Part shown: positions 10,280-37,059 of the stretch, one piece after another | How positions within the stretch are numbered: position 1 is the stretch's first letter | How the letters are laid out: every line of letters begins with the position of its first letter | Source of the DNA: an uncultured Methanosarcinales archaeon | GTDB taxonomy: Archaea; Nanobdellota; Nanobdellia; Woesearchaeales; ARS49 | DNA: 64,000 nucleotides | Reading direction: 5' to 3' | Assembly (NCBI GenBank): GCA_964637115.1 | Contig: CAZWVL010000003.1 | Location: forward strand, 64,001 to 128,000 | Program-made: the position numbers and the translations under genes | Notes under the pieces: model-generated | What the model was told of the DNA's origin: nothing | Databases searched by the model: none | Seen by the model: only the letters and a program-made list of their open reading frames with translations

Positions 10280-10300
10280 CGTTTAAAGAGGGTGAAGTTC

Positions 10301-12457
10301 GTGACTAACGAAAAAAAGGGTCAGATTACTATTTTTATAATCATAGGTCTAATACTTCTTGTCATAATTGGCACGGCCATCTATCTCAGCACAAGAGAAG
10401 CTAGAAGACCATTCGAAGTAGCACGGCCGAAAGTAGCAGAGCTATCAACAGAAGTACAACCATTACGCGATTTTGTCGAATCCTGCATCCAACGACTGGC
10501 AACAGACGGTCTTAGAAAAATAGGAGACTCAGGAGGTTATGTAGACCAGAAATATCTCCAGTACAATATTCTTTCTCCAACCGAAGGCGAAGCAGTACAA
10601 ATGTCGCCCGGAGCAGGGCCGTCAGTAGCATACTGGTGGTATTTGAAAAGCAACAACAAATGCCAGCCACCAAACTGCGTTTTTGACTCGAAACGCCCAG
10701 GACTCAGAAGAGGGGATGGGCAGATAACAATCGAAGGACAACTTGACGAATACGTTACAAACAATCTGCGCACCTGCCTTGGAAACTTTGAAGACTACCA
10801 AAAACGAGGTTGCAAGGTGCAAGAACTTGATGATCCAAAAGTCACGGCAAACGTGGCAACAGACGACATATTCTTTGTAGGCAAGTACTCTTTAAGAGCA
10901 GTATGCGGCGGACACAGCTACGACATTGAAGACTATTACGTCACAATAGACCTGAACATCAGAGAAATCTACAATCTTGCAACAGAATTAACCAATTACG
11001 AAAAAGACTACAGACTGCTTGAAAGCGCAACCAAAAATCTAATCTACACCTTCAGCGATGTTGACTCAAGCAAACTTCCGCCACCGCGCGACCTGCAAGT
11101 AGGCCCGCCAAAACCAGGAGTGTTCTGGATAAAAAGCGAAGTAGCAAAGAAGCTTACAGGATTAGTTGCTGCTTACATTCCACTCATACAAACATCAGGT
11201 GTGAGTAACTATCACTACATTACAGCGCCAGAAGGAGTAAGAGACCCAGAAAACTTTGAACTGCTATATAACAGACAATTCTATCTGCCATTAAACTCAA
11301 CACACCCGAAATTAGGGGTAAGATTCAGCTATCTAGACTGGTGGAAGCCATACTTCAACCTGAACTGCAAAGGAGAACTTTGCAGAGCAGATTCTGGCAG
11401 CAATTTCGCACTGCTGCCAATAACAATCAACAGATACCAATTCGCATACGACTTCAGCTATCCTGTTCTGGTTGAAATCAGAAATTCAGAGGCGTTCAAC
11501 ACAGAAGGATACAGCTTCAACTTCTTTTTAGAACAAAACCTGAGAAACTCTGACGCGTTCACAACAGACGTTCCTGAATTCCAGGCAGCAGCAGCAAGAA
11601 CAGCACCATCAATTTTCTGCGATCCAAAACAACAAACCTCGGGAACAGTAAGCCTATTTGTCAAGGACGCTAAAAACCTGAAAGGAACGGAAGATGCGTC
11701 AGTCAGCTTCCTCTGCGGAGACAACGCGTGCATGTTCGGATCCACAAGAAACGGAAGCCTCTCAAGCAAATTCCCCCGCTGCGTAGGAGGAACACTGAGA
11801 ATAAACAAACAAGGATATGCGAGCTTCTCATCGCCCCTCGACACGCAAAGAGAAGAACCAATGAAAATTGACGTTTTACTCGAGCCAGTGCGCACAGTAA
11901 ATGCAACCGTACGAAATTTTGCACTAACGAAGGCAGGCAAACACGACCAGTGGGACTTCAGAGAAGGCGGATCATTAAGGCCGAGCGACAATCAAGAAAC
12001 AACCATACAATTAACGAGAATTGGAAACTCCTGGGAAGAATCATTCAGCTCAGTAGTCAGCTTAACCGGTGATGAAAGCAAAGAAATGTTCATCATACCG
12101 GGAAATTACAGCATAACAATAAACAGTTTCCTAAGAGAAAACCTGACCATACCACCAGACCAGCGCTGCTTCAAAATCAAAAAACTCTTCGGCAGCAAAC
12201 GAAAATGCTTCTGGGTGCCCCAAAACGCCATTGTCTTTAACGAGACCTCGCCATTCCCATACGGGGGAGCAGAATATGAGTATGAGTTCACAAGCTCAAT
12301 GCTAAGAGCAGCAAACAAGATAGAATTCAAACAATTCATCATTGCCATAGACCGAGTGCCAGAAGACAAACGAATTGTAGAAGATTTGAACCAAATCGAT
12401 AATGTAAACGCATATGCGCTGTCAAACCTTGACCGTATATACCCGGTGATAACATGA
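10301..12457 (+). CDS. Large class III-signal (KKGQ) protein A1, Cys-containing, paralog of 18186..20219
   Basis: GTG 10301 after GAGGGTGA gives MTNEKKGQITIFIIIGLILLVII; FVESCIQRLATDGL...GGYV, YQFAYDFSYPVLVEI and CGDNACMFGST match A2. Confidence 0.8.
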   Translation: MTNEKKGQITIFIIIGLILLVIIGTAIYLSTREARRPFEVARPKVAELSTEVQPLRDFVESCIQRLATDGLRKIGDSGGYVDQKYLQYNILSPTEGEAVQMSPGAGPSVAYWWYLKSNNKCQPPNCVFDSKRPGLRRGDGQITIEGQLDEYVTNNLRTCLGNFEDYQKRGCKVQELDDPKVTANVATDDIFFVGKYSLRAVCGGHSYDIEDYYVTIDLNIREIYNLATELTNYEKDYRLLESATKNLIYTFSDVDSSKLPPPRDLQVGPPKPGVFWIKSEVAKKLTGLVAAYIPLIQTSGVSNYHYITAPEGVRDPENFELLYNRQFYLPLNSTHPKLGVRFSYLDWWKPYFNLNCKGELCRADSGSNFALLPITINRYQFAYDFSYPVLVEIRNSEAFNTEGYSFNFFLEQNLRNSDAFTTDVPEFQAAAARTAPSIFCDPKQQTSGTVSLFVKDAKNLKGTEDASVSFLCGDNACMFGSTRNGSLSSKFPRCVGGTLRINKQGYASFSSPLDTQREEPMKIDVLLEPVRTVNATVRNFALTKAGKHDQWDFREGGSLRPSDNQETTIQLTRIGNSWEESFSSVVSLTGDESKEMFIIPGNYSITINSFLRENLTIPPDQRCFKIKKLFGSKRKCFWVPQNAIVFNETSPFPYGGAEYEYEFTSSMLRAANKIEFKQFIIAIDRVPEDKRIVEDLNQIDNVNAYALSNLDRIYPVIT

Positions 12458-15400
12458 GAAAGTTATGCATCATTGCCCTGTTTATGATGGCTCTGATAGT
12501 CAGCATACCGGTAGTATGGGCACAAGAACTAAGCATACAGCAATTCAACGGCAAAGGCAGCAGCAAAGGGGTAGCAAGAACACACGATGAGCTCACGATA
12601 GAAGTTCTCGCAAAGATTCCAGGCGAGGACATAATCAACGAAAGCCAAGTAAGACTATACGTGGAAGACAGCTATTCAAATTTTGATTCCTGCACGTCGG
12701 CAAGCGGCGGATATTACAAGTGCATTTTCCACGAACCAGACTTTGAAGCATACGAGCCAATCGTTTTCACGATAGAACTCCGAAATGACGCGGAAGACAT
12801 AGTGGGCAGCGAAGTAAAAACCCTAATTGTGGACGCTAATGGGCCAGTAATCAAAGATTTTACTGTTGAACCGAACGTGACAAGCGGGGAAGTTTCTGTT
12901 TCATACGTTGCAGAAGATTATGGTCTCAATTACGGAAGCACAGATCAGTGTGCAGGCATCAAACAAATCGTCATAACAGCAGGAAACATTAGCGTAACGG
13001 ACGCAGGCCAGCAAGAAGTATGCACAAAAGACAACACATTGCAACTAACTCTGACAAAACCAGGAAAGCAGCAAGTCTGCGCAACAGCAACAGACCACGC
13101 CAACTACGCCAGCGCGCCAAAATGCACGGAAGTAAGAGTGGACAAAGCTCCGCCAAACATTGAAAAACTGTCAATCTTAGACGACGAAGGATTCTTAATA
13201 ACACACGTGCACTCAGGCGAAGAAAGAACAGCAACAATTACTGCAACAATAAGCGATGACGGCGGAGTTGACAGCAACGAAGTCTACGGAAATTTCTTCC
13301 AATTAAATCCGAACCTTCCAGATGTAATTCCACCTGATTTAGCCTCAGGAGACCTTTACAGCTGGACAGGAATAGGAGTAAGCGAAGTCAGTCCTTGCCA
13401 GTTGAAAATAACGGCTAAAGACATTCTCGGAAATTTCGCGGAGAAACAATTCTCCTGCGACATAAGAGCAGACGATACTCCGCCAATCGTGAAAGGAATC
13501 ATTTCAGAAGCAAACAGAGGAGGAGTTCCGCTGTTTGGATACGGAACACCGCTCATTGTAGAACTTGAAGACCGCGATAATGCAGGCGGAGACGGCATAG
13601 GATTTGTAAGCAAAAAAGTCTACCTTGACATGCACGAGCTTGGAATTGGAAGCAACGTCCAGGCAGATGCCTGCTCACGTTATTCCGGGGCAACGTGGAG
13701 ATGCTTATGGTTCTTGACACCACCAGCAACAGTTCAAGAAAACACGTACCACATACAAGTTCTTGCAGACACAGCAGATGACTTGGGAAATACCGTCGGC
13801 AACGTAGCAGATTACGAGATAATCTACGACAACACAGGACCATACCCGCCACAAGTTCTTGACTTCAAGGTAATATCAGGAGAAGAAGGAGTAGAATATC
13901 GAGGCGGAGCAATCAAAGGAAGCTTTGTACAATACACAGTCAGATCAGCAGACTTCACAACAAGTTATGCAAACTTCACAGACATCGGAGGCAGCGCACA
14001 AACAGGAGCAACAACCTGCACTCCAACAACCGGCAATGCGAGTGACTGCATATTTGAAAGTTTAGTGGATTTAAGCGGACCATACACATCATACTTCACG
14101 TTCGTATTTGCAGACGATGCAAACAACACTGCACGAACAAACGCAACTCTTGAGATTTACGGCATTGATAATGAAACGAATGTCAAGTACTGGAAGTCAC
14201 CTCCAACAGTAACGTGCAGTCCATACGTCATTGACAGATCAACAGCATCACTAATTCCGCCAATAGCAACATGCAGAGTAGATTTAGAAACACCGCGCAG
14301 AGACATAACAACACTAGCAATTGCAGGGCCAACGGCGCCAGACGAATGCACTGGCGACATCGAACTTTTCTTGAATGATATTTACGTGACGAACACAGTA
14401 GAGGGCAGCACGCATCCATACGTGTTCATGAAGCTCGAACCAAGAGATTATGTGTTTAATGAACTAAACATCAACTGCCCGCTGTCAGTCTACAGCAAAC
14501 GCGCAGTTACTGCAGGCGGAAAAACAGTCCATTATGTCTCACCAGAACCGCAAGAAGTTCCAGTAAACATGACGCTTAAGTTCCACAGCAATCCTTTGGG
14601 TGAAATAAACGCGAACATCGACGACGAAATCAGAAGCGCAATGAAAGGAGGGCTGGCAAACGCGGCATGGATAAGCGACCTCCGCAAATGGCTCCACTAT
14701 GGAGAATTAATCTGCCAGATAAAAGTCCTCATCACCAACATCATCAGCGCGCTGTTTATGGTAAGCATAGTGCTTGGCATAACAGCAGTTGCGGTGAGAG
14801 CAACAGGTGTAGGAGCTGGCGCAGCAGAAGTGCCTGCTCAGGCAGCAAAAGCAACTTGCACCGCAGAAGAAGGAGGCTCGGAAAGCTACAAGATAAGCTT
14901 AGGATTCCTTGATTCAATCTGCTCAGTAATCAACTGCGCAGCAGTAAGCGGCAAAGGTTCAGGCATAGAAGCATACGCAGGAGGAGGAGTGCCCTGGTGC
15001 TCAAATATGCGGGCATACTTGCAAAACCTTGACCCAACAGGCCAAGGAGCACTCGACCTTGATGTCAAGAACTCACTCGTACTAAGCATAATATGTTTAT
15101 GCCTGCCAGGCATTATTTACAACTTAGACAAGCTCAGACAAATACAATGCTTTAAGGCAGTCTGTTTGCACGATGACGTCAAATTATCCGGCTATCCTGC
15201 AAGCTTCTGCGATGAAATGTACGGCTACATGATGTGCGCGTTTGTCATTGGAGAACTATTCTCCCTATTCCCATTCATAGCATTCTTCGACAAGATAATG
15301 AACATGGTATTAGACCTAATAACAAACCCAGTTGCACTATTCCTCACAGGACTCGGCTGGGTGTGCACACAAACCTGCTATACAATCGGCACGCAACCAG

Positions 15401-15561
15401 TATTATACACCGGTTGTGCGATATTGAAAACAGTATCGACAGTAGCAGAAGCAGTAGCAGCGTGGAAAACATACCAGAAAAACAAAGATTCATTCGGCAC
15501 AGTAGGAAACAACTACTGCGATAGAATGGAAGAACTGGAAGACGAGATGGGGGAAGGATGA
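12454..15561 (+). CDS. Large secreted protein B1: Ig-like repeats plus C-terminal Cys-rich hydrophobic helical domain
   Basis: Signal peptide MRKLCIIALFMMALIVSIPVVWA; repeated DxxxPxI Ig-boundary motifs; C-terminal hydrophobic segments with CLCLPGII; ATGA overlap with A1. Confidence 0.8.
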   Translation: MRKLCIIALFMMALIVSIPVVWAQELSIQQFNGKGSSKGVARTHDELTIEVLAKIPGEDIINESQVRLYVEDSYSNFDSCTSASGGYYKCIFHEPDFEAYEPIVFTIELRNDAEDIVGSEVKTLIVDANGPVIKDFTVEPNVTSGEVSVSYVAEDYGLNYGSTDQCAGIKQIVITAGNISVTDAGQQEVCTKDNTLQLTLTKPGKQQVCATATDHANYASAPKCTEVRVDKAPPNIEKLSILDDEGFLITHVHSGEERTATITATISDDGGVDSNEVYGNFFQLNPNLPDVIPPDLASGDLYSWTGIGVSEVSPCQLKITAKDILGNFAEKQFSCDIRADDTPPIVKGIISEANRGGVPLFGYGTPLIVELEDRDNAGGDGIGFVSKKVYLDMHELGIGSNVQADACSRYSGATWRCLWFLTPPATVQENTYHIQVLADTADDLGNTVGNVADYEIIYDNTGPYPPQVLDFKVISGEEGVEYRGGAIKGSFVQYTVRSADFTTSYANFTDIGGSAQTGATTCTPTTGNASDCIFESLVDLSGPYTSYFTFVFADDANNTARTNATLEIYGIDNETNVKYWKSPPTVTCSPYVIDRSTASLIPPIATCRVDLETPRRDITTLAIAGPTAPDECTGDIELFLNDIYVTNTVEGSTHPYVFMKLEPRDYVFNELNINCPLSVYSKRAVTAGGKTVHYVSPEPQEVPVNMTLKFHSNPLGEINANIDDEIRSAMKGGLANAAWISDLRKWLHYGELICQIKVLITNIISALFMVSIVLGITAVAVRATGVGAGAAEVPAQAAKATCTAEEGGSESYKISLGFLDSICSVINCAAVSGKGSGIEAYAGGGVPWCSNMRAYLQNLDPTGQGALDLDVKNSLVLSIICLCLPGIIYNLDKLRQIQCFKAVCLHDDVKLSGYPASFCDEMYGYMMCAFVIGELFSLFPFIAFFDKIMNMVLDLITNPVALFLTGLGWVCTQTCYTIGTQPVLYTGCAILKTVSTVAEAVAAWKTYQKNKDSFGTVGNNYCDRMEELEDEMGEG

Positions 15562-17306
15562 GAAAAATCCTCATTATTATTCTGATTGTACTCCTGGTTG
15601 GGTCGGTGATAGTTGAAGCTCAACAAACGTCATCCTCTGGAATTACTGTCACCCGTCGCGTGGAACCAGGCACACAGCCAGCAGCTGCTGCAAAACCAGG
15701 TGTAAAACCACCTACGCAGTACAATTACGTTGCTGAGAGGGACATTTCAAAAGATGAACCAGTTGTTGTAACAACAGGCGGCATTAGATACTACGAGTAC
15801 AAATTTGATACAGATATACGTAAAGGAGATACAATCGCATCACCAGATGCATTAGACACCAAAGTTCTGCAACAAATTCCTCCAGAAGTAAAAAAAGAAA
15901 CTGACAAAAACCGAGAATATACGTATACTTCTGAAACCAACACCTTCGTTTGGTCAAAAGATAAACCAAAAGACGAATATATTATTGAAACAAAGACCGA
16001 CCTCAAAGTAAGCGACGACGGCGAAAGCACAACCAGAGAAACCACACAATCAGTGTATGATAAAACACCTGAAAAAGAAAAGGGCGAATACGTTGAAGGA
16101 TCAAAGCGCACAGAAATTAAAGAAACAAAAACAGCGTCAAAAACAGATCCAAAAACAGGAAAAACAACCGAACGACAAGTGATTGCCAACGAAGGCAGAA
16201 GACTCTATGACAAGCAGGGCAATGAAATCGGAATCCTCTGGACCGGCTATTCAGCATCCGAAAAAAACCCATTGGTGAGCGAGAAAACTTCACTTACCTT
16301 TGTGGGTAAGGATGGTCATACATACTATTATGCTACCCGAGACCCGGACGGCAATCAAGTCATTATGGTAAATGAGCTGGATAAGATGAAAGAAGCCGGG
16401 TTTACAGACGAACAAATAAATCAAGCTAGAGTTGATATCGTCGCGTCAGGCGTCATTGGATTCTTGGATTCTCTAAAAGTGCTCACCTGGCAGCAAAGCC
16501 TCGGCAGATTCATGAGGGCATACTACGAATTTGCAGGATTAAGACAATTATCATCATTATTATGGCCAAGTTATGATGCGGAAGTGCAGGCAAGAAAAGC
16601 AGAAATCCAGCAAAAATTCTGCATTACAGCAGGCATAACAAACTGCGCAATCTCAAAAATATGCGGCACAATATATCCAATCGGTGCAGACAACGTCCTT
16701 GCAGGCAGAGGGCCAGGAGGCAAATTTGTATCCAGCGCCTCACTCAACGCAGAGCGCTCAATCCCAATAGAAGTAGAAGGAATGACAAGACAACAAATGA
16801 TAGACTTGTTCGGCAATGCAACAGTCATCAAAGGAGTGCTTGTAAACCTCACAGACCCGGCATTTGATCCAAGAGTACTTGGCAGGATGAAACTCAGGCT
16901 CTACCACGTGCAGTATAGCGTAACAAACAATGCAGAAGATGAAAAGGAACTCAAGTACAACCTGCACTTCAGAAGAGTTGGAGAACAATTGAACTCAAGC
17001 TATGGAAAACCAGTCTACCAGTCGCGCTGGTGGACAGACAACGCGCCAACATTATCCTATCTTGCAACCGCACGCGACCACATTTACAAGTTCAGCGCAA
17101 CAGAATATGATAATGTATGCCTGGAGTTTGACCCAAAACTGCCGTCAGGACACGCAGCATTCTCAGACATGGTCGATGAATTATGCGTGCCATTCATAGA
17201 ATACGCAGGCGGGCCAACAGAAATAACGCCAGGCGCACAAGCAGCAGCAGGAACACAGCCTGCCCCAGGAGCACCTGTTTCAAGCGTGCCAGGAGCAGCG
17301 GTATGA
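15558..17306 (+). CDS. Secreted/membrane-anchored protein C with charged low-complexity N-half and Cys-containing C-half
   Basis: MRKILIIILIVLLVGSVIVEA signal; K/E/T-rich region aa 20-230; ATGA overlaps at both ends. Confidence 0.75.
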   Translation: MRKILIIILIVLLVGSVIVEAQQTSSSGITVTRRVEPGTQPAAAAKPGVKPPTQYNYVAERDISKDEPVVVTTGGIRYYEYKFDTDIRKGDTIASPDALDTKVLQQIPPEVKKETDKNREYTYTSETNTFVWSKDKPKDEYIIETKTDLKVSDDGESTTRETTQSVYDKTPEKEKGEYVEGSKRTEIKETKTASKTDPKTGKTTERQVIANEGRRLYDKQGNEIGILWTGYSASEKNPLVSEKTSLTFVGKDGHTYYYATRDPDGNQVIMVNELDKMKEAGFTDEQINQARVDIVASGVIGFLDSLKVLTWQQSLGRFMRAYYEFAGLRQLSSLLWPSYDAEVQARKAEIQQKFCITAGITNCAISKICGTIYPIGADNVLAGRGPGGKFVSSASLNAERSIPIEVEGMTRQQMIDLFGNATVIKGVLVNLTDPAFDPRVLGRMKLRLYHVQYSVTNNAEDEKELKYNLHFRRVGEQLNSSYGKPVYQSRWWTDNAPTLSYLATARDHIYKFSATEYDNVCLEFDPKLPSGHAAFSDMVDELCVPFIEYAGGPTEITPGAQAAAGTQPAPGAPVSSVPGAAV

Positions 17307-18184
17307 AAATTGGAACGCCAAGAATTATTGGAATTTTATTGATAATAATAGCAGCGCTTGTTTACTTCACCGGACTAAAAGGGTGGTTTGGATTGGGAAT
17401 AGCAGGACTCATTTTGCTGATAGCTTCATTAAATTACACGCAAAAAATGCTAGACCAGTTGATAGAAGCAGTCTCAGAATGGAAAACACTGTTTATCACA
17501 GCACTCTACGACGCAATCTGCTGGCTATTGATATTCGGCAGCGTATACTTCTTCCAATGGAGACTACAGGTAAAATCAGCAATAGCACAGGCAGGCACGG
17601 TACTCACCAGAGAAGCAATGGCGAGTCCACAGTTAACTGCTCAAAACGCAACCCAACTCCAAGGATTCTTCTTTTTCATCCTCACAAGCGCAATCATACT
17701 ATTGGTTTTCAGTTTCCTGGCATATTCGATCTCACGCGGATTCATCTGGACAACAATCGCCAAACAAAAAGCGGATAAAAAATTCTTCACCAGATGGCTT
17801 GGACTGAATGCAATCTGGTGGATAATCTGGACTCCAATATTCCTCATAATCATATTCGCCCTTAAAGGAAGCCCATTGACAAAAGGAGCAATCCTGTTCA
17901 TAATGATGATAGCAGCATACTTCACACCGCTAGTACAAGTTTTGTTCCTGCGGACGAGAAAAATAGGTTACAGTCTCGCAAACGGACTAGGGTGGGGATT
18001 ATCAAAACTGCATCTGCTTATAGTGCCTTATACGTACGCGTTTGTCATATACATAATAATTTACCAATTGTTCAGATTATTTCAAAACACTACAGCAATG
18101 CGGCCAGTATCAATGCTGTTTGTCGTGCTATTCATCGCGTGGCTGAGAATATACCTCTATCACATTATCAAACAATTCAAGTAA
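17303..18184 (+). CDS. Polytopic membrane protein D1
   Basis: About 7-8 hydrophobic segments; start reset to ATG 17303 (MKIGTPRII), which overlaps the upstream stop as ATGA. Confidence 0.8.
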   Translation: MKIGTPRIIGILLIIIAALVYFTGLKGWFGLGIAGLILLIASLNYTQKMLDQLIEAVSEWKTLFITALYDAICWLLIFGSVYFFQWRLQVKSAIAQAGTVLTREAMASPQLTAQNATQLQGFFFFILTSAIILLVFSFLAYSISRGFIWTTIAKQKADKKFFTRWLGLNAIWWIIWTPIFLIIIFALKGSPLTKGAILFIMMIAAYFTPLVQVLFLRTRKIGYSLANGLGWGLSKLHLLIVPYTYAFVIYIIIYQLFRLFQNTTAMRPVSMLFVVLFIAWLRIYLYHIIKQFK

Positions 18185-18185: not shown

Positions 18186-20219
18186 ATGAACAAAAAAAAG
18201 GGGCAGATAACAATTTTCATAATCATCGGAATAATTCTATTACTCAGCATAGGAGTAGGCCTATATTTCTACCAAAAAAGAGTTACTGCACCGATCAGAA
18301 GCATAGTTGCCGTTCCCGAAGATGTCCAGCAAATCTACGATTATGTCGCAACCTGCACAAGCCAAATAGCAAAAGATGGACTGATATTACAGGGAACGCA
18401 AGGCGGCTACATCGACGTTCCACCAATAATTCAAAAAAATCCAAACGCATTCATCGCAGCAGACCCTGCAGGTATAGCAAAAACACCATTATGGTACTAT
18501 GAAGGCGAAGACAGAACACCAACATTAGAATTCCAACAACGAGAACTCGCAGTATACGTGAAACAAAATTTACCGGCCTGCGTTGGAAACTTTATGTCAT
18601 TCAAAGACCGCTTTGAAATAATTCCAAAAAGCGATATAATTCCGGTAATCACGTACACGGAAGAAGAAGTAATTGTAGAAATAAAATGGCAGCTCGATAT
18701 CAGAGTGCAAGGCAGGCCAACACAGCTGGACGCATTTGTAGTCAGCTTCCCTCTCAAATACAAAGCAATGTACGAATTAGCCAAGCAAACAATGGAAACA
18801 GAAAACAAAGAAGGATGGTTTGAAAATCTGACAATAGACCTAATGACTGCAAATTCCAAAATACCATTCTCGGGAATGGAACTAAGCTGCGGAACAAAAA
18901 CCTGGCATATACAAGAAGTGAAAAAACAAGTACAAAGAATGCTGTACTACAACCTGCCCCTTATCAGGGTAGCAAACACAAATTATCCTCCGCCACTCGC
19001 CTCACTCAGGACATATGCTAATCTTAAATCACAGGCAGCAGACATAAGAGCAGACCTTGAAAAAGACAAAGAGCCAAACTGGCCTGAAAACCCTCCGGCA
19101 GACGTGTATGAAATGAACAGAATGATGTTTGACGCAGGAGCCAAAAAAACAGACTTGAAAACGGCGTTTACGTACCTGTCAAACTGGCCGTTATTCATTA
19201 ACGCGCAGCCAAACAGCGGGGGAGTGTTAAGCACGGCAAACATGAAAGGACCGCGCAAATACCTAAGATTCCTCTGCATCAACCAATGGCACTTCACATA
19301 CGACCTGATTTATCCAGTCAAAATGCAGATAAAAGATGATAATGCGTTCAACGGCGAAGGATTCGTGTTCCAAATGGGATTCCCAGTCATAATAGAAGAC
19401 AATGAAGAAAGCAGAGTATTCTTCGGCATCAGAAGATTTGTAATCCCTGATGTAGGCACGGAATTCTGCACAAACTACGGCACGCAATCAATAGAAGTCA
19501 GAGCAAAAGGATTTGTCGAAGGAGGAATAGTAGCAGAAGAACTGGATGACGCAAACATAACATACACTTGCCTGAATAAAGAATGCCTGCTCGGCAAAAC
19601 ATACAGTGATGGCTCGGGAATAATCAGGCTAAACTCATACCTCCCAGAAGGATGCGCAAATCCTCTGCTGACTGCGCAGAAAGAAGGATACCTGCCGGCC
19701 AAAAAGTACGTGGACAAAGACTATGTGGAACTAATGATGACAAAGCTCAAACGAATGCCATACAAAATAGAAGTGCATCCATACGACTCAATCAACAAGC
19801 GCTCGATGGCAGACGTGTACTCAAAACTTCCAAAAACAATGCACGCAACAGTTACAATCAGTTTGCGCAACCAATCATTTGACCAATACAAAAGCTATCC
19901 GGCAAATGGTACGCAATTCCAAGCAGAAGGAACAACAGACCTTTCAGACATAAGCGAAGTAACAAAAGATGAAGTAGACTTTGTCTACGACGACGCACAA
20001 TATGACATCGACATACTATTGTTCAAAGGAAACACAGTGGTGGGAGGATACCACAGAGAGAATATCACAATCTCCTACGAAGATGTTGCGTCAGCAAGCG
20101 CTGTAACGTTCAAAGTCTTCGAATGGAGACCACTGCCAGAAGGCGAAAAACAGGCACAAATGTTCCTGTACTTGTATGAAACAAAACACGAGGATTTAGG
20201 ACCAAGCTTCCATGGATAA
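18186..20219 (+). CDS. Large class III-signal (KKKGQ) protein A2, paralog of A1
   Basis: MNKKKGQITIFIIIGIILLLSIGVGLYFY; YVATCTSQIAKDGL...GGYI, WHFTYDLIYPVKMQI and CLNKECLLGKT. Confidence 0.8.
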   Translation: MNKKKGQITIFIIIGIILLLSIGVGLYFYQKRVTAPIRSIVAVPEDVQQIYDYVATCTSQIAKDGLILQGTQGGYIDVPPIIQKNPNAFIAADPAGIAKTPLWYYEGEDRTPTLEFQQRELAVYVKQNLPACVGNFMSFKDRFEIIPKSDIIPVITYTEEEVIVEIKWQLDIRVQGRPTQLDAFVVSFPLKYKAMYELAKQTMETENKEGWFENLTIDLMTANSKIPFSGMELSCGTKTWHIQEVKKQVQRMLYYNLPLIRVANTNYPPPLASLRTYANLKSQAADIRADLEKDKEPNWPENPPADVYEMNRMMFDAGAKKTDLKTAFTYLSNWPLFINAQPNSGGVLSTANMKGPRKYLRFLCINQWHFTYDLIYPVKMQIKDDNAFNGEGFVFQMGFPVIIEDNEESRVFFGIRRFVIPDVGTEFCTNYGTQSIEVRAKGFVEGGIVAEELDDANITYTCLNKECLLGKTYSDGSGIIRLNSYLPEGCANPLLTAQKEGYLPAKKYVDKDYVELMMTKLKRMPYKIEVHPYDSINKRSMADVYSKLPKTMHATVTISLRNQSFDQYKSYPANGTQFQAEGTTDLSDISEVTKDEVDFVYDDAQYDIDILLFKGNTVVGGYHRENITISYEDVASASAVTFKVFEWRPLPEGEKQAQMFLYLYETKHEDLGPSFHG

Positions 20220-23200
20220 GAACACGAAAGAAGAAAAGAGGAAAGTGAATTATTTGACGCGCTCTTTGAGTGAATTTTTCTCCCCCACACTTTGTAAGGG
20301 GGAGAAAAATTCACCCCATCATAGAACTCTTGCGCGGCGGCAGCTTGGGTCAGTGGCATTATTCATGGCATTCCTCATCATCATGCTTCCAATAGTTGAT
20401 GCTCAAGCAATTGGCGACCAGCCAACAGCACAGGGAGAAGAAACAACAGTCAAACCACTGTTTGTAAACGCAACCATTCCACGATATCCGCGCACAATGA
20501 AGATAGACATTGCAGGAATTACAAAACCAGGAGCAACTATTACGATCAATATCAACGGCGCTGATGTCAAAAAAGACATCATTGATGATGGAACATTTTT
20601 GTTCAAGCAAGTCCAACTGCAGGCAAGCAACGCAATAATCATTACAGCAGAACTCGGCGGCGAAACAGCAACACAAACATACCAAGCAGACGTTGACAAT
20701 TCTCCGCCGCTCATCAATATCACGACAACACCCGTAGTAACGGCAGCAAGCTCAACAGTCAAGGTCAAGGTTTCAGAACCAGTCAATCTGACAGTGCAGG
20801 CAGGAAATCAAACAAATAAATCATACTCGCTCCAGGCAGGAAGCAACGACGTTAAAATAGAACTGCAGCCAGGCGAAAACATGGTCGGCTTTACGGCAGT
20901 TGATAGAGCCGGATTTAAATCATTCATTGAAGAAAGAATCGTTTACGACACAGGACCGCCAAGATTTGAAAAAACAAACCTGAACCAATTGTCTCCGACA
21001 TACAGGCAAGAAGTGGAAGTCAAGGGCAAACTATCAGAACCCGGCAGCGTAACAGCATTTGTCAACGGCAAACCACAAAAAACAGAAGCAACAGCTTCGG
21101 ATGGAAGTTTCTCGATAAAAGTAAAACTTGAAAGATCGCTTTCGGTAACTGCAGGCTCACAATCAGCTTCAGGAGTCACGGGAGGAGCAGTATCAATAGA
21201 ACAAGGCATCCAATGGAAAAGCAAACTAAGGCTCGAGGCAATCGACGCAGCAGGACTAAAAGCAACAACGGAAGAAGTTGAGATAGCATATTCCATCTGC
21301 GGAAGCGGCACGTGGATAGACGTCCAATTAACAGACCCAATGCCGGACATACTCAATCCAAGACTGATAATTGAAGGCATACAGCAAGTCGGCATAGGCT
21401 TCAACTACACATACAGAGGCGGCGCAAAAGCAGAAATCGATGCAAGAAGCATCAGAATAAGAACATTAATGCTTTCTCCAGAAGTCAGGAAAGAATTTGA
21501 CAACAATCTGGTGATGGTACGGGCTCCAAACGTAAGAGCTCAGCGCGCAACCAAGCCTAGCGGAGTAGGCTACATACAAGTAAACTTCAATCCTTTAGAA
21601 GACCCGTGGAGCCTGCCTGAAAAAGACGGTAAAAAAGAAGAAGCGCCTGCAAACGCAACAATGTTCGATCGTGAACAAAGAATCTCCCAACACAGAGAAG
21701 GAGACTGCATCACGCCCGGCTTTGGCTGCATGAAACTATTCCTTGAACTTGAAATTCCATTCACAGAAACAACCAGGAAAATGGCCTACGACCCGATTGT
21801 GCGCGGCACACTTGAAAAAGATGTCGTGGAGCCATTAACACAAAGAACGTGCATAGATGTCAACATTGCGATAGACAAAAGAGTTCCTCCGGATGTATTG
21901 CCATCAGGACTTTTGCGAGCATCCAGCGAATTCCTCGGGGCAGTCATACAAGGCATAGACAAAGTATTAATGCCAATCCAGACAATCGGAAAGTACTTGT
22001 TTTACACGTGTGTAGCTGGACAATTCCTGTCACTAGTTCCAATCGTTCTCGAAAAATACAACTGCGAGTTCAGAAAAGTAGCGGACGTTTTAGCAGGAGG
22101 AGAAGGCGCATTTGACCCCAATGTAGCAGCAATCAACGCCTGCGACGCAGAATATGGTGCAGGTTCAGACGCAGCAGACAACTGCAACACCTGCCATAAA
22201 TGGAAAGACTACCGCAAAAAATTTGTCAGAACATACAGACAAATCTGCGACAGAGTAATGTGCCCGGCAGCACCATCACTGCAGTATTATCTCAAAACCA
22301 GAGGCAGAGAATCACCAACAGAAGTCAAAGCAGAAAATGCAAAAGCTGATCCCGTGATTGCCCAATACGCCCAAGGCGGCAAACTCTTTGCCGGCAGCGA
22401 CTGCGCAGCATGGGTTGACGTGAACAAGCGCAAAGAAGAAAGAGGCACGAAGAAACCAGTACTTGCTCCACGATTATTCTTCACCACTGATGAAATTCAA
22501 AAAATCTATGATAACTGGCTCAAACATCAGTCAAACACTGCAGGAGAAACAGAAACAGGCGGCGTAAACTGCGCAGGACTGCACCCTGCAACACCAGAAT
22601 GCTGCGGATATGAGTATATGCAGGAATGGAGTTCAGCGTGCGGAACAAGCGCACTCGGGCAAAGCCTGGATACTTTTGACGAAATAAAAGAAAGCACCTG
22701 CCTCGCAGCACAACGATCAGGCAAGAACGAAATAGGAGGATTAGAAGGAGAATCAATACAGTGCAACAAACTGTTGAATGCAGCCAGCGGATTCTGCGAG
22801 AAAAACGGAATGCCGCCTTTGACGCCAATTAGAGTAACGACAATTGATGCGAGAAAAGCAGAGTCATTAGAACTGCAAAAATACGCAGAAAGCAACGACC
22901 TCTACATCATCGTGCAGGATAAAGGCGCGGCGAGCTCCATTTTAGGCGTAGTACCAACAGGCCAGTCACAAGGATACTCAATCAAGCTGGGCTTAATAAT
23001 AAAAACATTGGAGTTCCAAAAAAGCGACAAGCCGGAAATAATTGCAACAAGCGAACGCTCCAAGCTCACAGAAAAACTTGACGTGATAGAATATCCGGAG
23101 TATACAGCATTCCAAACATCATTCTTCAGCCAGGAACAGATAGACGTTTACAGAGAAAAAGCAGCAATTCCACCAGATTTCAAAAAAACACTCTGTGATG

Positions 23201-26200
23201 CAGCAGGCAAAAAATTCGGTCAGTGCAACATTGATGAAAAGTACATTTACGCCCAAGTAATTCAGGCCATTGGAAGCCCAGACAAAGACTACATCATCAA
23301 GCCAAACGAAGGGCTGATAAACTCAGTCAGATGCCTTTGCATCCCAACAATTGTTGGATACCTCAAATTATGGAGAGGAATAATGGGAGCAGTAAAAAGC
23401 TGCATTGACACCATACTCCTGACTGGCGACGGAGAGAATGGAATGTGCCAGGCACTCGTCAGCAGATACGTCTGCGATTTATTGTATGACGCGCTTGCCT
23501 GCTTCACGCAAAAATTCGGCACAGGACAAGGAAGAGTAGAAAAAGAAGGCGGCGGAGACATAATGGGGGCGTTAGTTTCTGCAGGAAGCGAAATGCAAAG
23601 AGAAGTGCAAGGCAGATATGGAGAAACAGGGCTTTACAAAGCAGTATTTGTCGACAGAAAATTAGTACACTCAATCTGCATGTGGGCGTTCACAGGAACG
23701 TGGAACTTCGACTTGGGAGCAATATTTGACCAAGCAATAGACGAAATCCCGATCAGCAGCCAGGCATTGCTAACACCGTGCAACAGAAGATTCGTAAGCT
23801 TCAACCCAACAACAAGACCAGGAGGACTGGTAACGTGGGTGTATCACTTCGGGTCATTCTTCGCAGCAGGAGCAGACGCAGAAATAGAATTGCACCTTGT
23901 CTGCAGCGATGATTTCACGTGCAAAGAATCAGACGGCTTTGAAAACGGCAAGTGCGACTGCCAAGGCAAAGGAAAAAGAGATATTGTTATCAGGCCGGAA
24001 AACCTTCCAACAAGAGCAAAGAAAAACCAAATCCTGAGCGAAGAAATATTCTTCACGATGCAAGCAGGCAGCGGAGAGAGCAATGTTCGATATGACAAAG
24101 CATACCTCCTCTACAGGTGGAAAGAAGCAAACAAACAGATGAAAGAAGACAAGACAGAACCCTGCTCAATTGGATTAACAGGCGGCGGTGGAAGCATGCC
24201 TGCATTCTGCAGATGGGATCCGTTCACAGTAAGCTTCAGGTGCCAGTTTGGCGAAGCGGCAGGAGGAATACGCTTCAAATCAGGAAAACCAGACTACAAA
24301 CATCCGACAGTAAAAGGCGGAGTTTTCGCACTTGACGAAAGCGTTAGTGTAGAACTGCAGATGCAGCAAGACTATCCAGGCGGAGAAAAGTACAACAAAT
24401 ACTTGCAGTACACCATACTAGGCCCAGGCAACAAAGAACTTGCCACTAACAAAGACAGAGGACTAATATTATTACAGACAAATGGCGATTACAATAAGCG
24501 ATTATCAGCAGACGGCACGCCACCAGTGCCAATAGAAATAAAACGAGAATGGTTCACAACAGTAGAAGCAGGAAAAACCTTTTCGGCCAGACAATGGGCA
24601 AAATCACCACAAAATCCAACAGGCACAGCAGCAGACAACAAAGTAATTGAAGATGTGCAATTGGTAGGACTTGTAGGAGCAGTAGCAGCACAAAAGCAGT
24701 TCGTGCTTGAGCTAACAAGACAAGGCGACAAAATAAATTATGCAGTCTACACAGCTGGCACGAACGACAAGCCAGGAGTGGGGGAAAAGGGCGGATTCTA
24801 CGTTGCAACACCAGCACTCTGCACAGGCACAATTTCTGGAACGAAAATTACGTGCACACCATCAATAGCTCCAAGACCAGGGCAACCACCACAGCCGCAA
24901 GACACTCTAACAATAACACTCAAAGCAGATCCTCTTTACCCAACAGTAGACGAACTAATCCAGCTGCACATAAACATGAACATTCCAAGAACATTAGCAG
25001 CTGACCCGTGCAAAGGAGACGTAAACAACAGGTATCAACAATCATTCAAAATGATGCTGATGGCATACGATGCAGATAATTATGGATCACCATCAGAACA
25101 AGTAGCAGTAGACCCGTATACAGGAGCGGAAGCGGTGTTTGAAATTCCATTTTATGCCATGTGCGCAACGGCAGATGAATTAAAGCCGCTGGAAGGAATA
25201 CTTGGGCCAGCAGAAATATTGGCAGGACTGAGCAAGGACATAAACGCGTGGTTAGCACCAGAAAAAGATTACAAGACCAAACTCGAAGGATTTGTCTCGC
25301 AACCACTCAAGATAGAACAAACTACGAGTGTGCAAAATCAACTCGACCAGATAATCTTTGGCGAAACGGCAAATTCAGTTGTACTCGAGAAATACAAAAC
25401 CAATCTGAAGAATATAACAGGAATGGATGCAGTAAAAGCAGCAGTTGAAGAATTATACAATATTATCAGACCTCCATTCCACGCTGAACTCGATTTGCGC
25501 AATGTTGTCGGCTTGTCAATTGATGCCAAAAATGTTATCACAAACGAGCTTAAAGGCACGCCAAACGTGACAAAAATACAGGATGCGCTCAGACCAATCA
25601 TACCAGAACTTCAGAAAGCACTCGAAGCAAAACAGAAATTACTAACTTTGCTGCCAGCAGCTGCAGGCGAAAAAGGAGCCTGCCCAAGCGGAAAACAAGT
25701 TCCAGAAAAAACAGGAGAATATTATCTCTGTGCAACATCCTTGCCATCAGACAAATGGGTTGAAGTAACGGACAGGCAATGCTACGCAGTTGAAAAACAA
25801 ACATGCTACAAATTGTCGGCTTCAAACCTCTGTTACGACAAAAACACGAATGGAGACACGTTCCACTGCGACACAGAATGCAAAGGAAACTCAGAAACAT
25901 CAAGTGAGCAACGCATTTGTCCGAAGAAAGAAGAGCCAACGTGTTGTGTAGTCAAGTCAACAATTGCGCAAAAACTCCTGCAACTGAAAAACCAAATCGG
26001 CCAGCAGCAAGGCGATGATGAAAGCTTCAGGTCAAGCATTACCACAACAAGGACAAATGAAGAATTAATTACATATCTGGTTGGAACAGGCGATATAAAT
26101 GTCCCAACACTGATATCAGAGCTGAAAGCATATGCGTCTTTGAAAAATCTTGAAAGAGAAGGGCTCTCAAGTGTTGTTGGGTCATCAGGCCTGACACCCA

Positions 26201-27444
26201 CTGATGAAGTCAGACGTTTCATTGGCATGGATGAAGATTATGCCTGGAAAACAACATTTATGGTATTTGGAATACCTTTTGAACTTCACGCTTTGTCGGT
26301 ATCGGTTGAAAACTTGAATAAAATGAAAGACGACCTAGTGGCAATGGCACAAGCGCCGCCAACAGCGCCAAACGGACCATCTCCTGAAAACATAAAAGCA
26401 GCCATTGCCCGCATTTCATTGGAAGTTGGCGTTATTAAGGCAACGCGCGCACTTGCCATCAATTCGCTTGACAAAGACCTAGGCATCATACCAAAGACTA
26501 CAGAAGAAGTTGTAAAAGAAACTGCTGGTGCAGCGCCGGCAGCAGCGTCAGTTGCAGCCCCGCCAAAACTTCCGCTCAGCATCAACGGCAAAACAGACCT
26601 TGCAATTATTACAAAAGGAACAGATATTCAAGTCAAAATAATACTTCCAAAAAACGTACAAGCCTTTGAGTACATTGAATTATTCGCATACAAAAGCAAT
26701 GTTCACATTGCCACCTGGGACCTCAGAAACAACTACAATCCAAGCACGGGTGAGGCAACATATATGTTAGGCCCAGACCAGTACGCCAATTTTGTAATAG
26801 GCGAAACATACGAATTTGACATGGCGTATAATCCGCCGCACACAATTGGAAACAAAGTACAAGTGAGAATAATTGTTCCGCCATGCGGAGACGGAAAAAT
26901 AGACCAAGGAGAAGTATGCGACAGAAAGAGCGATGGAACAGTAATAGCAAGCAATGAAATGGTTTACAATCCAACCACATTTACTGCATACTGGCAGATT
27001 TATGCACCATCGATGGGACCATTCGGAGCGACTGAATATAGAGTATTGTTCAGCAAAAACATGCAGACGTTCTGTAATGATATCATTGGAGAAGATTGTG
27101 ATGACAAGGTGGAATACTCTGCAGAAAAAGGATGGTGTTCAGGAGACTGCAAGAAATTCATGCCAAGAGTTGGGTGCGTAGATGATGACACAATCGGCGA
27201 CAGCGGAAGAGCAGCATATCTCACGCCAGAATTCTATTACGAAGGCACGGAAAAAAAGATGAACAACGTATGGTGGTATCTCTTCAGCGATCCAAACGCG
27301 GGAAGAAATGGATGCTATCCAACCACTGAAGAGGCAGGATTGCCTCCATACAACGATAAATGGACAGAAGCACCAGTTCCAATAGACTATCCGCAATTTA
27401 TGACCAAGCCCGCTCCTTTCCAACCTCCAACGGCACAACCATGA
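20212..27444 (+). CDS. Giant 2410-aa surface protein B2: Ig-like repeats, Cys-rich hydrophobic domain, coiled regions, CGDG..E.CD repeat
   Basis: Hydrophobic signal VALFMAFLIIMLPIVDA; Ig-like N-terminus; CLCIPTIVGYL segment homologous to B1; PPCGDGKIDQGEVCD near the C-terminus. Confidence 0.8.
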   Translation: MDKNTKEEKRKVNYLTRSLSEFFSPTLCKGEKNSPHHRTLARRQLGSVALFMAFLIIMLPIVDAQAIGDQPTAQGEETTVKPLFVNATIPRYPRTMKIDIAGITKPGATITININGADVKKDIIDDGTFLFKQVQLQASNAIIITAELGGETATQTYQADVDNSPPLINITTTPVVTAASSTVKVKVSEPVNLTVQAGNQTNKSYSLQAGSNDVKIELQPGENMVGFTAVDRAGFKSFIEERIVYDTGPPRFEKTNLNQLSPTYRQEVEVKGKLSEPGSVTAFVNGKPQKTEATASDGSFSIKVKLERSLSVTAGSQSASGVTGGAVSIEQGIQWKSKLRLEAIDAAGLKATTEEVEIAYSICGSGTWIDVQLTDPMPDILNPRLIIEGIQQVGIGFNYTYRGGAKAEIDARSIRIRTLMLSPEVRKEFDNNLVMVRAPNVRAQRATKPSGVGYIQVNFNPLEDPWSLPEKDGKKEEAPANATMFDREQRISQHREGDCITPGFGCMKLFLELEIPFTETTRKMAYDPIVRGTLEKDVVEPLTQRTCIDVNIAIDKRVPPDVLPSGLLRASSEFLGAVIQGIDKVLMPIQTIGKYLFYTCVAGQFLSLVPIVLEKYNCEFRKVADVLAGGEGAFDPNVAAINACDAEYGAGSDAADNCNTCHKWKDYRKKFVRTYRQICDRVMCPAAPSLQYYLKTRGRESPTEVKAENAKADPVIAQYAQGGKLFAGSDCAAWVDVNKRKEERGTKKPVLAPRLFFTTDEIQKIYDNWLKHQSNTAGETETGGVNCAGLHPATPECCGYEYMQEWSSACGTSALGQSLDTFDEIKESTCLAAQRSGKNEIGGLEGESIQCNKLLNAASGFCEKNGMPPLTPIRVTTIDARKAESLELQKYAESNDLYIIVQDKGAASSILGVVPTGQSQGYSIKLGLIIKTLEFQKSDKPEIIATSERSKLTEKLDVIEYPEYTAFQTSFFSQEQIDVYREKAAIPPDFKKTLCDAAGKKFGQCNIDEKYIYAQVIQAIGSPDKDYIIKPNEGLINSVRCLCIPTIVGYLKLWRGIMGAVKSCIDTILLTGDGENGMCQALVSRYVCDLLYDALACFTQKFGTGQGRVEKEGGGDIMGALVSAGSEMQREVQGRYGETGLYKAVFVDRKLVHSICMWAFTGTWNFDLGAIFDQAIDEIPISSQALLTPCNRRFVSFNPTTRPGGLVTWVYHFGSFFAAGADAEIELHLVCSDDFTCKESDGFENGKCDCQGKGKRDIVIRPENLPTRAKKNQILSEEIFFTMQAGSGESNVRYDKAYLLYRWKEANKQMKEDKTEPCSIGLTGGGGSMPAFCRWDPFTVSFRCQFGEAAGGIRFKSGKPDYKHPTVKGGVFALDESVSVELQMQQDYPGGEKYNKYLQYTILGPGNKELATNKDRGLILLQTNGDYNKRLSADGTPPVPIEIKREWFTTVEAGKTFSARQWAKSPQNPTGTAADNKVIEDVQLVGLVGAVAAQKQFVLELTRQGDKINYAVYTAGTNDKPGVGEKGGFYVATPALCTGTISGTKITCTPSIAPRPGQPPQPQDTLTITLKADPLYPTVDELIQLHINMNIPRTLAADPCKGDVNNRYQQSFKMMLMAYDADNYGSPSEQVAVDPYTGAEAVFEIPFYAMCATADELKPLEGILGPAEILAGLSKDINAWLAPEKDYKTKLEGFVSQPLKIEQTTSVQNQLDQIIFGETANSVVLEKYKTNLKNITGMDAVKAAVEELYNIIRPPFHAELDLRNVVGLSIDAKNVITNELKGTPNVTKIQDALRPIIPELQKALEAKQKLLTLLPAAAGEKGACPSGKQVPEKTGEYYLCATSLPSDKWVEVTDRQCYAVEKQTCYKLSASNLCYDKNTNGDTFHCDTECKGNSETSSEQRICPKKEEPTCCVVKSTIAQKLLQLKNQIGQQQGDDESFRSSITTTRTNEELITYLVGTGDINVPTLISELKAYASLKNLEREGLSSVVGSSGLTPTDEVRRFIGMDEDYAWKTTFMVFGIPFELHALSVSVENLNKMKDDLVAMAQAPPTAPNGPSPENIKAAIARISLEVGVIKATRALAINSLDKDLGIIPKTTEEVVKETAGAAPAAASVAAPPKLPLSINGKTDLAIITKGTDIQVKIILPKNVQAFEYIELFAYKSNVHIATWDLRNNYNPSTGEATYMLGPDQYANFVIGETYEFDMAYNPPHTIGNKVQVRIIVPPCGDGKIDQGEVCDRKSDGTVIASNEMVYNPTTFTAYWQIYAPSMGPFGATEYRVLFSKNMQTFCNDIIGEDCDDKVEYSAEKGWCSGDCKKFMPRVGCVDDDTIGDSGRAAYLTPEFYYEGTEKKMNNVWWYLFSDPNAGRNGCYPTTEEAGLPPYNDKWTEAPVPIDYPQFMTKPAPFQPPTAQP
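20270..20314. repeat. Perfect 17-bp inverted repeat at the 5' end of the giant gene
   Basis: GTGAATTTTTCTCCCCC (20270-20286) / GGGGGAGAAAAATTCAC (20298-20314), 11-nt loop. Confidence 0.9.
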
Positions 27445-28250
27445 CCCTAATTACAACCCTCCCCCTCGCCTGGAAGGCATTCACTGAAAACAAGAAGTAT
27501 TTGATATGGATAATCCTAATAGAATTCGTATTCCTCTTTGTTCTAACTCAAATACATTTGATGTACTTCGTGCCAAGCGCAGAAGCAGCAGCAAGAGCAG
27601 GAGAAATAATGACGCAAGAAGTACAGAAATTGCCGGAAACAGAAATTTATCAGCTTGAAACACTGCTTGTGAAAAATGAAGGCTTTATGACAGCATACAA
27701 CGAGTTGCTTGCCTATATGGGCTTTTTCATAATAAGCCTGTTTATTGCATTTGTTGTTTTCAGAACTCCATTATGGTATATCTCGCACAAAAGCATACTG
27801 AAGAAAATGCCCTGGAAACCAGTGCTGATAAAGTTTCCATTGCTTTCACTGTTCTGGTTTGTAGTGCTGGTAATAGCTTTTTCACTTTACAGCATTGGCA
27901 CAGGCAGCACAACAACAGTACTGCCAATTTTCAGCCCGTTCTGGGTGACGATACTAATGTACATAGTATTTCTGGCTATCTTTTACTTCTCCCAAATCAG
28001 TTTTGCTCTCATCCCGTCACAACAAACCTTTAAGAATACGTTCATCTATGGCACTAGACATGCAAAAACAATCATTCCAGCATTCCTCGTCAACGCAATC
28101 ATTACTTTCATTGTCTGCTCATTGCCATTCAACTGGATTACAACAAAACCACTCATCTCGCTCGCAATCATACTCATCATCACAATTCCAGCACTTGCAT
28201 TTGCAAGACTGCACATCATAGTAGCAACATGGCAAAAACCGCAATCATAA
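27441..28250 (+). CDS. Polytopic membrane protein D2, probable paralog of D1
   Basis: About 6 hydrophobic segments with D1-like spacing; start reset to ATG 27441 (ATGA overlap with the B2 stop). Confidence 0.75.
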   Translation: MTLITTLPLAWKAFTENKKYLIWIILIEFVFLFVLTQIHLMYFVPSAEAAARAGEIMTQEVQKLPETEIYQLETLLVKNEGFMTAYNELLAYMGFFIISLFIAFVVFRTPLWYISHKSILKKMPWKPVLIKFPLLSLFWFVVLVIAFSLYSIGTGSTTTVLPIFSPFWVTILMYIVFLAIFYFSQISFALIPSQQTFKNTFIYGTRHAKTIIPAFLVNAIITFIVCSLPFNWITTKPLISLAIILIITIPALAFARLHIIVATWQKPQS

Positions 28251-36994: not shown

Positions 36995-37059
36995 TCTATA
37001 TCAAAAATTGGTTGATGAGTTCAAGGGTTGCGTATAACAATTAGTTAGTGAGAGTTACA

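Follow-up and report, generated by a model that had tools for sequence, protein, structure and literature searches.

Two secreted proteins of 1035 and 2410 amino acids (aa), B1 and B2, are encoded within a 64,000-nucleotide (nt) stretch of contig CAZWVL010000003.1 (positions 64,001–128,000, assembly GCA_964637115.1; hereafter the window). An earlier note on this DNA had proposed that both carry a cysteine-stapled hydrophobic helical domain resembling a membrane-inserting module, which raises the question addressed here: is the module a membrane anchor, a device that attacks other membranes, or a structural part of the two proteins? The source genome (1.27 Mb, 98% complete) belongs to a DPANN archaeon, and the nearest named homologs come from metagenome-assembled genomes of Candidatus Woesearchaeota and Nanoarchaeia. 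The reading that we favor, and consider reasonably probable, is that both giant proteins are built around a structural core, an extracytoplasmic helical hub stapled by disulfides, and that the B1 hub keeps one free cysteine for a covalent link to a third protein, C.

A cysteine-rich helical module in B1 and B2

The module lies at the C-terminus of B1, within its last 320 codons, and in the interior of B2.

12454–15561, plus strand: B1 gene (1035 aa), with a Sec signal peptide, immunoglobulin-like (Ig-like) ectodomain repeats and a C-terminal cysteine-rich helical hub
14662–15558, plus strand: hub domain of B1 (aa 737–1035), predicted to be all-helical; 15 cysteines, made up of 11 family-invariant ones and two optional pairs
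15058–15237, plus strand: motif block of B1 homologous to B2 (aa 869–928), CLCLP-G-I-I-Y-N-L-D-K-x-R-Q-I-Q-C ... C-x8-C
20212–27444, plus strand: B2 gene (2410 aa), with a Sec-type signal peptide
21889–23991, plus strand: conserved core of B2 (aa 560–1260), with 29 conserved cysteines
23296–23502, plus strand: B2 counterpart of the motif block (aa 1029–1097), CLCIP ... C ... C-x8-C, located by hhalign

Within the B1 hub, aa 767 (nt 14752) is the first residue of a Gly/Ala-rich hydrophobic stretch. This stretch is followed by the CLCLP element at aa 881, in a segment beginning at nt 15073, and by the C-x8-C segment at aa 918 (nt 15205); the B2 counterparts of these two motifs lie at aa 1034 (nt 23311) and aa 1078 (nt 23443). 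The invariant residues of the B1 motif block are C883, P885, G886, N890, K893, R895, Q896, C899, C904, C919 and C928.

Pairwise comparison gave borderline evidence for homology of the module. BLASTP reported only the similarity of the N-terminal Ig-like regions (E 8e-6) and missed the cysteine-rich helical module. By Smith–Waterman alignment, the B1 and B2 segments scored 54 (shuffles 26.9 ± 4.7), and the B1 C-terminus scored 60 against the whole of B2 (shuffles 41.4 ± 4.7, with one shuffle at 61). HMMER made no direct link between B1 and B2, the own genome having a single match to the B1 profile; a query with the B2 core (aa 560–1260) recovered 86 other proteins at E ≤ 0.001.

Profile–profile comparison by hhalign aligned 28 B1 tails with 83 B2 cores at a probability of 86.6% (E 4.5e-6). 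With 163 B1 sequences the probability was 80% (E 1.4e-5) over 60 columns, in which B1 869–928 was placed opposite B2 1029–1097 and both motifs, CLC[LI]P and C-x8-C, fell within one collinear alignment. The real pair scored 49–54, and the controls, reversed profiles and ten column-permuted B2 profiles, scored 12–27 (E 0.014–0.8). A further collinear C-x4-C element (B1 823–828, B2 679–684) is weak alone (hhalign E 0.06–0.1). Because the profile comparison beats the reversed and permuted controls, we accept the homology: the profiles indicate that B1 and B2 share a cysteine-rich helical module, as the earlier note had claimed, with its segments where that note had placed them.

That the resemblance is instead convergence or chance, arising from a cysteine-rich hydrophobic composition, is very improbable. 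The failure of BLASTP and hhalign probabilities of 80–87%, not above 95%, leave some room for it, but no control profile rose above a score of 27 and the two motifs do not come from separate alignments. The similarity of the B1 and B2 N-termini also speaks against it, as does the position of the two genes in paralogous A-B-D modules of the operon described below (A1 and A2 are paralogs, BLAST E 3e-23).

The B1 hub, at about 300 aa, is a compact version of the B2 core of about 700 aa, in which a large insertion separates the first helices from the CLCIP helices. A weak third hhalign match (E 0.2) pairs the last helices of B1 (aa 942–998, 15277–15447) with the first core helix of B2 (aa 572–628, 21925–22095); it could stem from a circular permutation or an internal repeat, or mean nothing.

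The hub defines a large unannotated family

We defined the B1-type hub family by a match to a profile of seven B1 C-terminal domains together with the invariant cysteine set and the C-[LIV]-P-G motif; the B1 of the window carries all of these (profile E 1.8e-126). The profile matched 1241 representatives at 50% identity (E ≤ 1e-3), 438 of them at E ≤ 1e-30, and nearly all of the top 150 are either proteins of about 1000–1100 aa with the domain at their C-terminus or fragments. Of 301 genomes sampled from the phylum, 177 had a hub match; these belong almost entirely to the window's own order and include 22 of the 24 genomes of its family and most families of the order, and other orders of the class gave weak matches only. 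The 301-genome tallies count two unpublished genomes (G243 and G244), which are excluded from the loci and sequences analyzed otherwise.

The hub had no match above cut-off in Pfam (searched to E ≤ 10), NCBIfam or PHROG. A sequence profile search of the Protein Data Bank (PDB) returned no relative of the hub and, for B2, just FN3 domains in B2 homologs. The best score of a feature search of the ESM Atlas (0.81) lay within the chance range, and literature searches returned no description of the hub domain or of the operon. By these profile searches the B1-type hub constitutes a large unannotated family, and it matches nothing known in sequence or predicted fold.

One candidate was rejected: SP24, a virion membrane protein of negeviruses, matched B1 aa 944–1004 (15283–15465) at E 0.0024–0.005 with 17–18 bits, the cut-off being 30, and was judged compositional. 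A negevirus ORF3 also appeared at rank 46 of the BFVD fold search of the B1 hub (E 3.8), probably through hydrophobic composition.

Transmembrane-grade hydrophobicity is not conserved

The most hydrophobic part of the B1 hub is its first long helix.

14704–14823, plus strand: first long helix and Gly/Ala-rich turn of the B1 hub (aa 751–790), transmembrane (TM)-grade, with a 19-residue Kyte–Doolittle score (KD19) of 2.62

Taking KD19 ≥ 1.6 as TM-grade, we scored the family on 163 representatives. Helix 1 reached this value in 49% of them, the motif helix in 26% and the helix after the motif in 17%; in the full-length members P0028 and P0010 helix 1 is not TM-grade, and the motif helix carries the invariant P-G, N, K, R and Q. 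The turn (aa 776–801) has a Gly plus Ala fraction of 0.50 in this B1, a value reached by 2% of members (family median 0.27), so the Gly/Ala-rich turn is a peculiarity of this protein. The B2 equivalents are amphipathic (family mean KD19 at most 1.4), and B2 has no TM-grade segment except a marginal one at aa 595–613. The description of the module as hydrophobic thus holds for this B1 and fails for B2 and for the B1 family at large.

Neither feature expected of an anchor, a conserved hydrophobic helix of about 20 residues or a terminal helix with a short basic cytoplasmic tail, was found: the hydrophobic first helix of B1 precedes about 250 cysteine-rich residues, and the B1 tail is acidic, not basic. 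The family alignment indicates that the hub is not a conserved membrane anchor and that the hydrophobicity in this B1 is that of a buried helix taken to an extreme in this lineage. Family evidence also led us to reject a three-pass membrane topology.

Cysteine parity points to disulfides and to a probable B1–C link

Eleven cysteines are at least 98% conserved among the 163 hub sequences, and the remainder tend to come and go together. Cys849 and Cys881, the latter being the first cysteine of CLC, are both present in 38 sequences, both absent from 92 and discordant in 26; for Cys802 and Cys975 the counts are 118, 22 and 16. Consistently, the hub contains 11, 13, 15 or 17 cysteines in 97% of 103 full-length B1 representatives, and the ectodomain, whose conserved cysteine map shows eight local pairs, has an even count in 98% of them. 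As an internal control, the count is even in 93% of 74 B2 homologs. Cysteines gained and lost in twos indicate disulfides, and we infer from this pattern that the hub cysteines are probably oxidized, in keeping with the 'Cys-stapled' of the earlier note. The pair 802–975, present in about 75% of members, would fasten the first hairpin by its second arm to the C-terminal helices; the hairpin would then not be free.

The constant odd remainder implies that one hub cysteine has no partner inside B1. The gene directly downstream encodes a secreted protein with a matching parity.

15558–17306, plus strand: protein C (582 aa), with a Sec signal peptide and 5 cysteines; proposed covalent partner of the B1 hub

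The mature protein C has an odd number of cysteines in 22 of 22 sequences (5 to 17 cysteines), which suggests an intermolecular disulfide between B1 and C.

Supporting this idea, 23 secreted proteins of 1340–1870 aa from other families of the order carry the hub in mid-chain (E 1e-27 to 1e-33), between an Ig-like N-terminus and a tail of 450–1000 aa. The final ~90 residues of the tail share homology with the module at the C-terminus of protein C (hhalign with 23 tails, 96.8% and E 2.2e-10; with four tails only, 78%; reversed control E 0.35). HMMER gave no link between protein C and these tails, and the long relatives had no match to the B2 core hidden Markov model. Parity was counted in the 22 long proteins with a script-recognized signal peptide and a tail of at least 450 aa: total cysteines are even in 18, with a typical split of 12 in the ectodomain, 11 or 13 in the hub and 5 or 7 in the tail. 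With hub and C-type module in one polypeptide, the two odd counts thus cancel.

The long relatives also bear on topology, since 19 of the 22 scored for hydrophobicity have no TM-grade segment beyond the signal peptide. A hub that has exported sequence on either side, in chains that lack a TM helix, must be outside the cell. Together with the internal position of the domain in B2 and the unconserved TM-grade hydrophobicity, this upholds the view of the earlier note that the segments are not ordinary anchors.

At the loci that encode them (L011–L034, e.g. L012:3036-7871; L034 on the minus strand), the long hub gene usually lies between methionyl-tRNA-synthetase-like and A1-like genes, and the order is B-A, not A-B-C-D; the long gene may be a B1+C ortholog or a further paralog. 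The surface proteins of the window's own genome carry dozens of strictly paired cysteines despite no detected DsbA/Thioredoxin_4-type gene, and a distant relative (L001) has a DsbA-like gene (L001:1-527) about 7 kb upstream of its operon.

Predicted folds of the B1 hub and B2 core

AlphaFold2 (AF2) predicted the B1 hub as helices only, with a mean predicted local distance difference test score (pLDDT) of 69. The B2 core (pLDDT 71.6, rising to 82–93 at aa 570–740) was predicted as a helical bundle plus a mixed α/β stretch. The bundle is built of the first helices (aa 565–683) and the CLCIP helices (aa 1044–1096), and the mixed stretch lies between them at roughly aa 700–1030. In the VIA alignments, small four-helix-bundle templates cover residues 2..533 of the B2 model, which indicates that the two helical parts pack together. 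The models agree with the suggestion that the segments are helices of a folded, disulfide-locked domain.

Foldseek searches of the PDB with both models and of BFVD with the B1 hub returned generic helical hairpins and bundles only (E ≥ 0.29), as did a wide VIA-align search with both models (Z ≤ 8.1, within the stated helical background). No saposin, TraN, fusexin or viral fusion protein was among the Foldseek and VIA-align matches listed for these whole-domain models. The single pore-forming toxin among them, YaxB (Z 6.1, root mean square deviation 4.2, 135 residues aligned), lies within the helical background. Such searches are uninformative for helical bundles; they lend support to no known fold, and they are no proof of a new one either. 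Insertion into a target membrane as translocator, pore or fusion element, which the earlier note had considered, gains nothing from them, and the Gly/Ala-rich turn confined to 2% of the family and the hairpin tied by 802–975 count against it. Its suggestion of a TraN-like protein fares no better, with no Pfam match, no TraN among the fold matches listed and an all-α predicted fold, which also rules out the class II fusexin fold.

Operon and neighboring loci

B1 comes second in a block of overlapping, co-directional genes in the order A1, B1, C, D1, A2, B2, D2 and E. The members other than B1, C and B2 are as follows.

10292–12457, plus strand: A1 (721 aa), with a class-III (prepilin-like) KKGQ N-terminus
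17303–18184, plus strand: D1, a polytopic membrane protein by hydropathy
18186–20219, plus strand: A2 (677 aa), with a class-III-like KKGQ N-terminus
27441–28250, plus strand: D2, a polytopic membrane protein
28229–28828: E, the last gene of the co-directional block

D1 and D2 have no BLAST similarity to each other. ATGA overlaps occur at the A1/B1 and B1/C junctions, the latter coupling the translation of C to that of B1. Relatives at identities as low as 29–31% retain the order A1-B1-C-D1-A2-B2, a gene in the D1 position is kept in L001 and L003–L005, and the operon of relatives often lies 3′ of a threonyl-tRNA synthetase gene, as it does in the window. Pfam, NCBIfam and PHROG scans of all operon proteins gave nothing relevant, only weak Ig-like matches; among B1 homologs, 12 of 27 match the Ig-like Pfam family Big_3_3. 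Small proteins encoded upstream of the operon have KGQ-type prepilin-like N-termini like those of A1 and A2, and a single prepilin peptidase and a single T2SSE-type ATPase are encoded elsewhere in the genome.

The B2 ORF begins 42 codons ahead of the hydrophobic (h-) region of its signal peptide (20212–20340, aa 1–43), and in several B2 homologs the h-region ends within the first 16–25 residues, by a script estimate. The true B2 start may be further downstream, or the N-terminal extension may be lineage-specific.

Beyond the operon, a gene at 31262–33571 (minus strand) encodes a 769-aa protein with 47 cysteines, a lipoprotein-like N-terminal signal ending in Cys and a C-terminal TM helix. It contains repeated CGNG..GEQCD-type units, and a similar CGDG...GEVCD unit occurs at the C-terminal end of B2. 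Its 298-aa neighbor (33568–34464, minus strand) has an N-terminal region in common with it; neither protein of this cysteine-rich locus (31262–34464) has a Pfam match. The region 35337–40691 contains long ORFs overlapping on both strands and has a strongly negative GC skew, down to -0.36. For its minus-strand ORFs the sole match is Yae1_N, a GxxxG-repeat family (E 7e-11 and 4e-12), those on the plus strand have no matches and Rfam found no RNA; the region probably encodes repetitive Gly-rich proteins with shadow ORFs.

Comparison with known systems

Saposin-like proteins (SAPLIPs: saposins, NK-lysin and amoebapores) resemble the hub in being extracytoplasmic bundles of amphipathic or hydrophobic helices held by several disulfides. 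They comprise about 80 aa in four or five helices, with six cysteines in a fixed nested pattern that form three disulfides, and are represented in Pfam by SapB_1 and SapB_2. The hub differs in its size of about 300 aa, its 11–17 cysteines, the CxC-P motif, one unpaired cysteine and a different spacing, and it had no SapB match in Pfam even at E ≤ 10.

The colicin pore domain, the diphtheria toxin T domain and Bcl-2 share with it a long uncharged helix within an amphipathic bundle of a soluble secreted protein. Such inside-out pore-forming domains must refold to insert and, to our knowledge, have no such dense internal disulfide cross-linking. In the hub, by contrast, five to eight predicted disulfides lock the bundle, the hydrophobic helix is unconserved and no fold match rose above background; it shows no conserved, buried hydrophobic hairpin free to leave the bundle, as in colicins.

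Class II fusogens (fusexin, HAP2 and archaeal Fsx1) have three β-rich domains with the fusion loop at the tip of domain II, whereas the hub is predicted to be all-helical. A class I viral fusion protein combines, in one chain, a conserved fusion peptide and heptad-repeat helices with a separate TM anchor at the C-terminus; the hub family has the Gly/Ala-rich hydrophobic turn in 2% of its members, a second anchor is missing from B1, and no such protein was among the BFVD or PDB matches listed. TraN is a cysteine-rich outer-membrane protein of conjugative plasmids in didermic bacteria, from which the hub differs by the lack of a Pfam match, its all-α prediction and an archaeal host assumed to have no outer membrane.

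The operon as a whole resembles the loci of the Epd pili of Methanococcus and the Sulfolobus bindosome in its class-III-signal proteins (A1, A2 and the small upstream proteins). It differs in that its proteins match no Pfam or NCBIfam family, pilin and bindosome families included, and the hub domain has no counterpart in either system.

Closer in taxa is 'module 98' (Castelle et al. 2021, PMC8204110), whose 51 families are specific to Woese- and Pacearchaeota; most are unknown, and they are largely extracellular or membrane families. The operon proteins come from the same taxa, are mostly predicted to be membrane-bound or extracellular and are of unknown function, and probably sit in this published bin; the hub domain, the disulfide logic and the operon are not described there. 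The only family named from module 98, fam00969, has a lytic transglycosylase domain (PMC8204110), and Pfam scans gave no SLT match in B1, B2 or their listed homologs.

Assembly model and alternatives

In the model that we favor, the B1 hub would be an extracytoplasmic all-α domain locked by five to eight disulfides, seven in this protein, with its hydrophobic helices buried within the bundle or at subunit interfaces. B2 would contain a homologous, less hydrophobic hub as its central core, expanded by the large insertion. The hub would act as a structural docking platform, neither a transmembrane anchor nor a membrane-attacking device; its unpaired invariant cysteine would most likely be joined, in a disulfide between the two chains, to the one cysteine of protein C that is left without a partner, and the pilin-like A proteins together with the polytopic D proteins would keep the complex attached to the cell.

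Several points weigh against this model. The role of the hub in assembly is drawn from architecture only, and confidence in the B1 hub structure is moderate, with the pLDDT falling to ~50 over the last 90 residues. Odd parity could also mean homodimers, a free thiol or a metal ligand; the sequences counted are related, so the percentages overstate their independence; and a DsbA/Thioredoxin_4-type oxidase gene was not found in the own, 98%-complete genome (G000). In addition, the first helix of this B1 runs for 23 uncharged residues at KD19 2.62, two later segments score 1.8–2.1, and the Sec translocon might integrate segments of such hydrophobicity.

These hydrophobic segments lend themselves to a reading, unlikely in our view, in which the family fold is soluble except here and in closely related genomes, where helix 1, possibly joined by the two later segments, would sit in the cell's own membrane as a monotopic or re-entrant anchor. 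KD19 values of 2.6–2.7 in this B1, P0011 and P0012, with no charge across 23 residues, fit it, and B1 ends with the domain, which is the usual place of an anchor in archaeal surface proteins. Yet homologs 48–49% identical over the domain have no TM-grade first helix (P0010) or a marginal one (P0017, 1.61), a single pass would leave the disulfide-paired remainder of the domain in the cytoplasm, the acidic C-terminus offers no basic tail, and the homologous module is internal in B2 and the long relatives. Still harder to accept is a polytopic anchor followed by a cytoplasmic, cysteine-rich metal-binding domain in which the covarying cysteines are metal ligands; we hold this to be highly unlikely. 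A three-pass model would place both covarying pairs on the same, cytoplasmic, side, and the missing DsbA-like oxidase would suit reduced cysteines. However, the model needs three TM helices that most family members lack, the long relatives and B2 keep the module without any TM segment, the cysteines of the Ig-like ectodomain are paired just as strictly, and in our judgment the cysteine spacing does not suggest a metal site.

A buried hydrophobic helix or hairpin might instead be released on contact and insert into the membrane of a host cell as translocator, pore or fusion element. DPANN archaea rely on cell contact with their hosts (PMC11329633, PMC8204110), and B1 is a secreted protein in which a very hydrophobic long helix is followed by a Gly/Ala-rich turn. 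The first core helix of B2 also has an uncharged 19-residue window in 73% of homologs, and the fold searches could not be expected to recognize a helical bundle of this kind. We nonetheless consider membrane attack quite unlikely: the helix is TM-grade in just 49% of the family and the turn Gly/Ala-rich in 2%, the 802–975 staple and the five to eight disulfides would hinder the refolding that such toxins need, no pore-former or fusogen rose above background in the PDB or BFVD, and B1 has no second anchor of its own. A related conjecture, which we find similarly doubtful, makes the hub the core of an undescribed cell-contact machine of Woesearchaeota, the hydrophobic helix and turn of this lineage being adapted to engage a partner membrane as tether, translocator or fusogen.

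Significance of the hub

Woesearchaeota are among the most widespread uncultured archaea and are thought to live attached to other cells, and the components of their contact surface are not understood. The hub forms the conserved center of B1 and B2, which are the two largest products of a surface operon that is nearly universal in the order. New here are the control-tested homology of the domain in B1 and B2, the size and range of its family, the rejection of the anchor at family level, the lack of support for a pore or fusion activity, and the argument from cysteine parity and fusion for a B1–C link. The hub is a domain family that could enter databases, and the bookkeeping of cysteine parity may serve as a cheap predictor of covalent partners among secreted proteins from uncultured organisms. 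What was a block of hypothetical proteins is turned into a testable model of assembly, in which a disulfide-locked extracellular hub and protein C would each have one spare cysteine.

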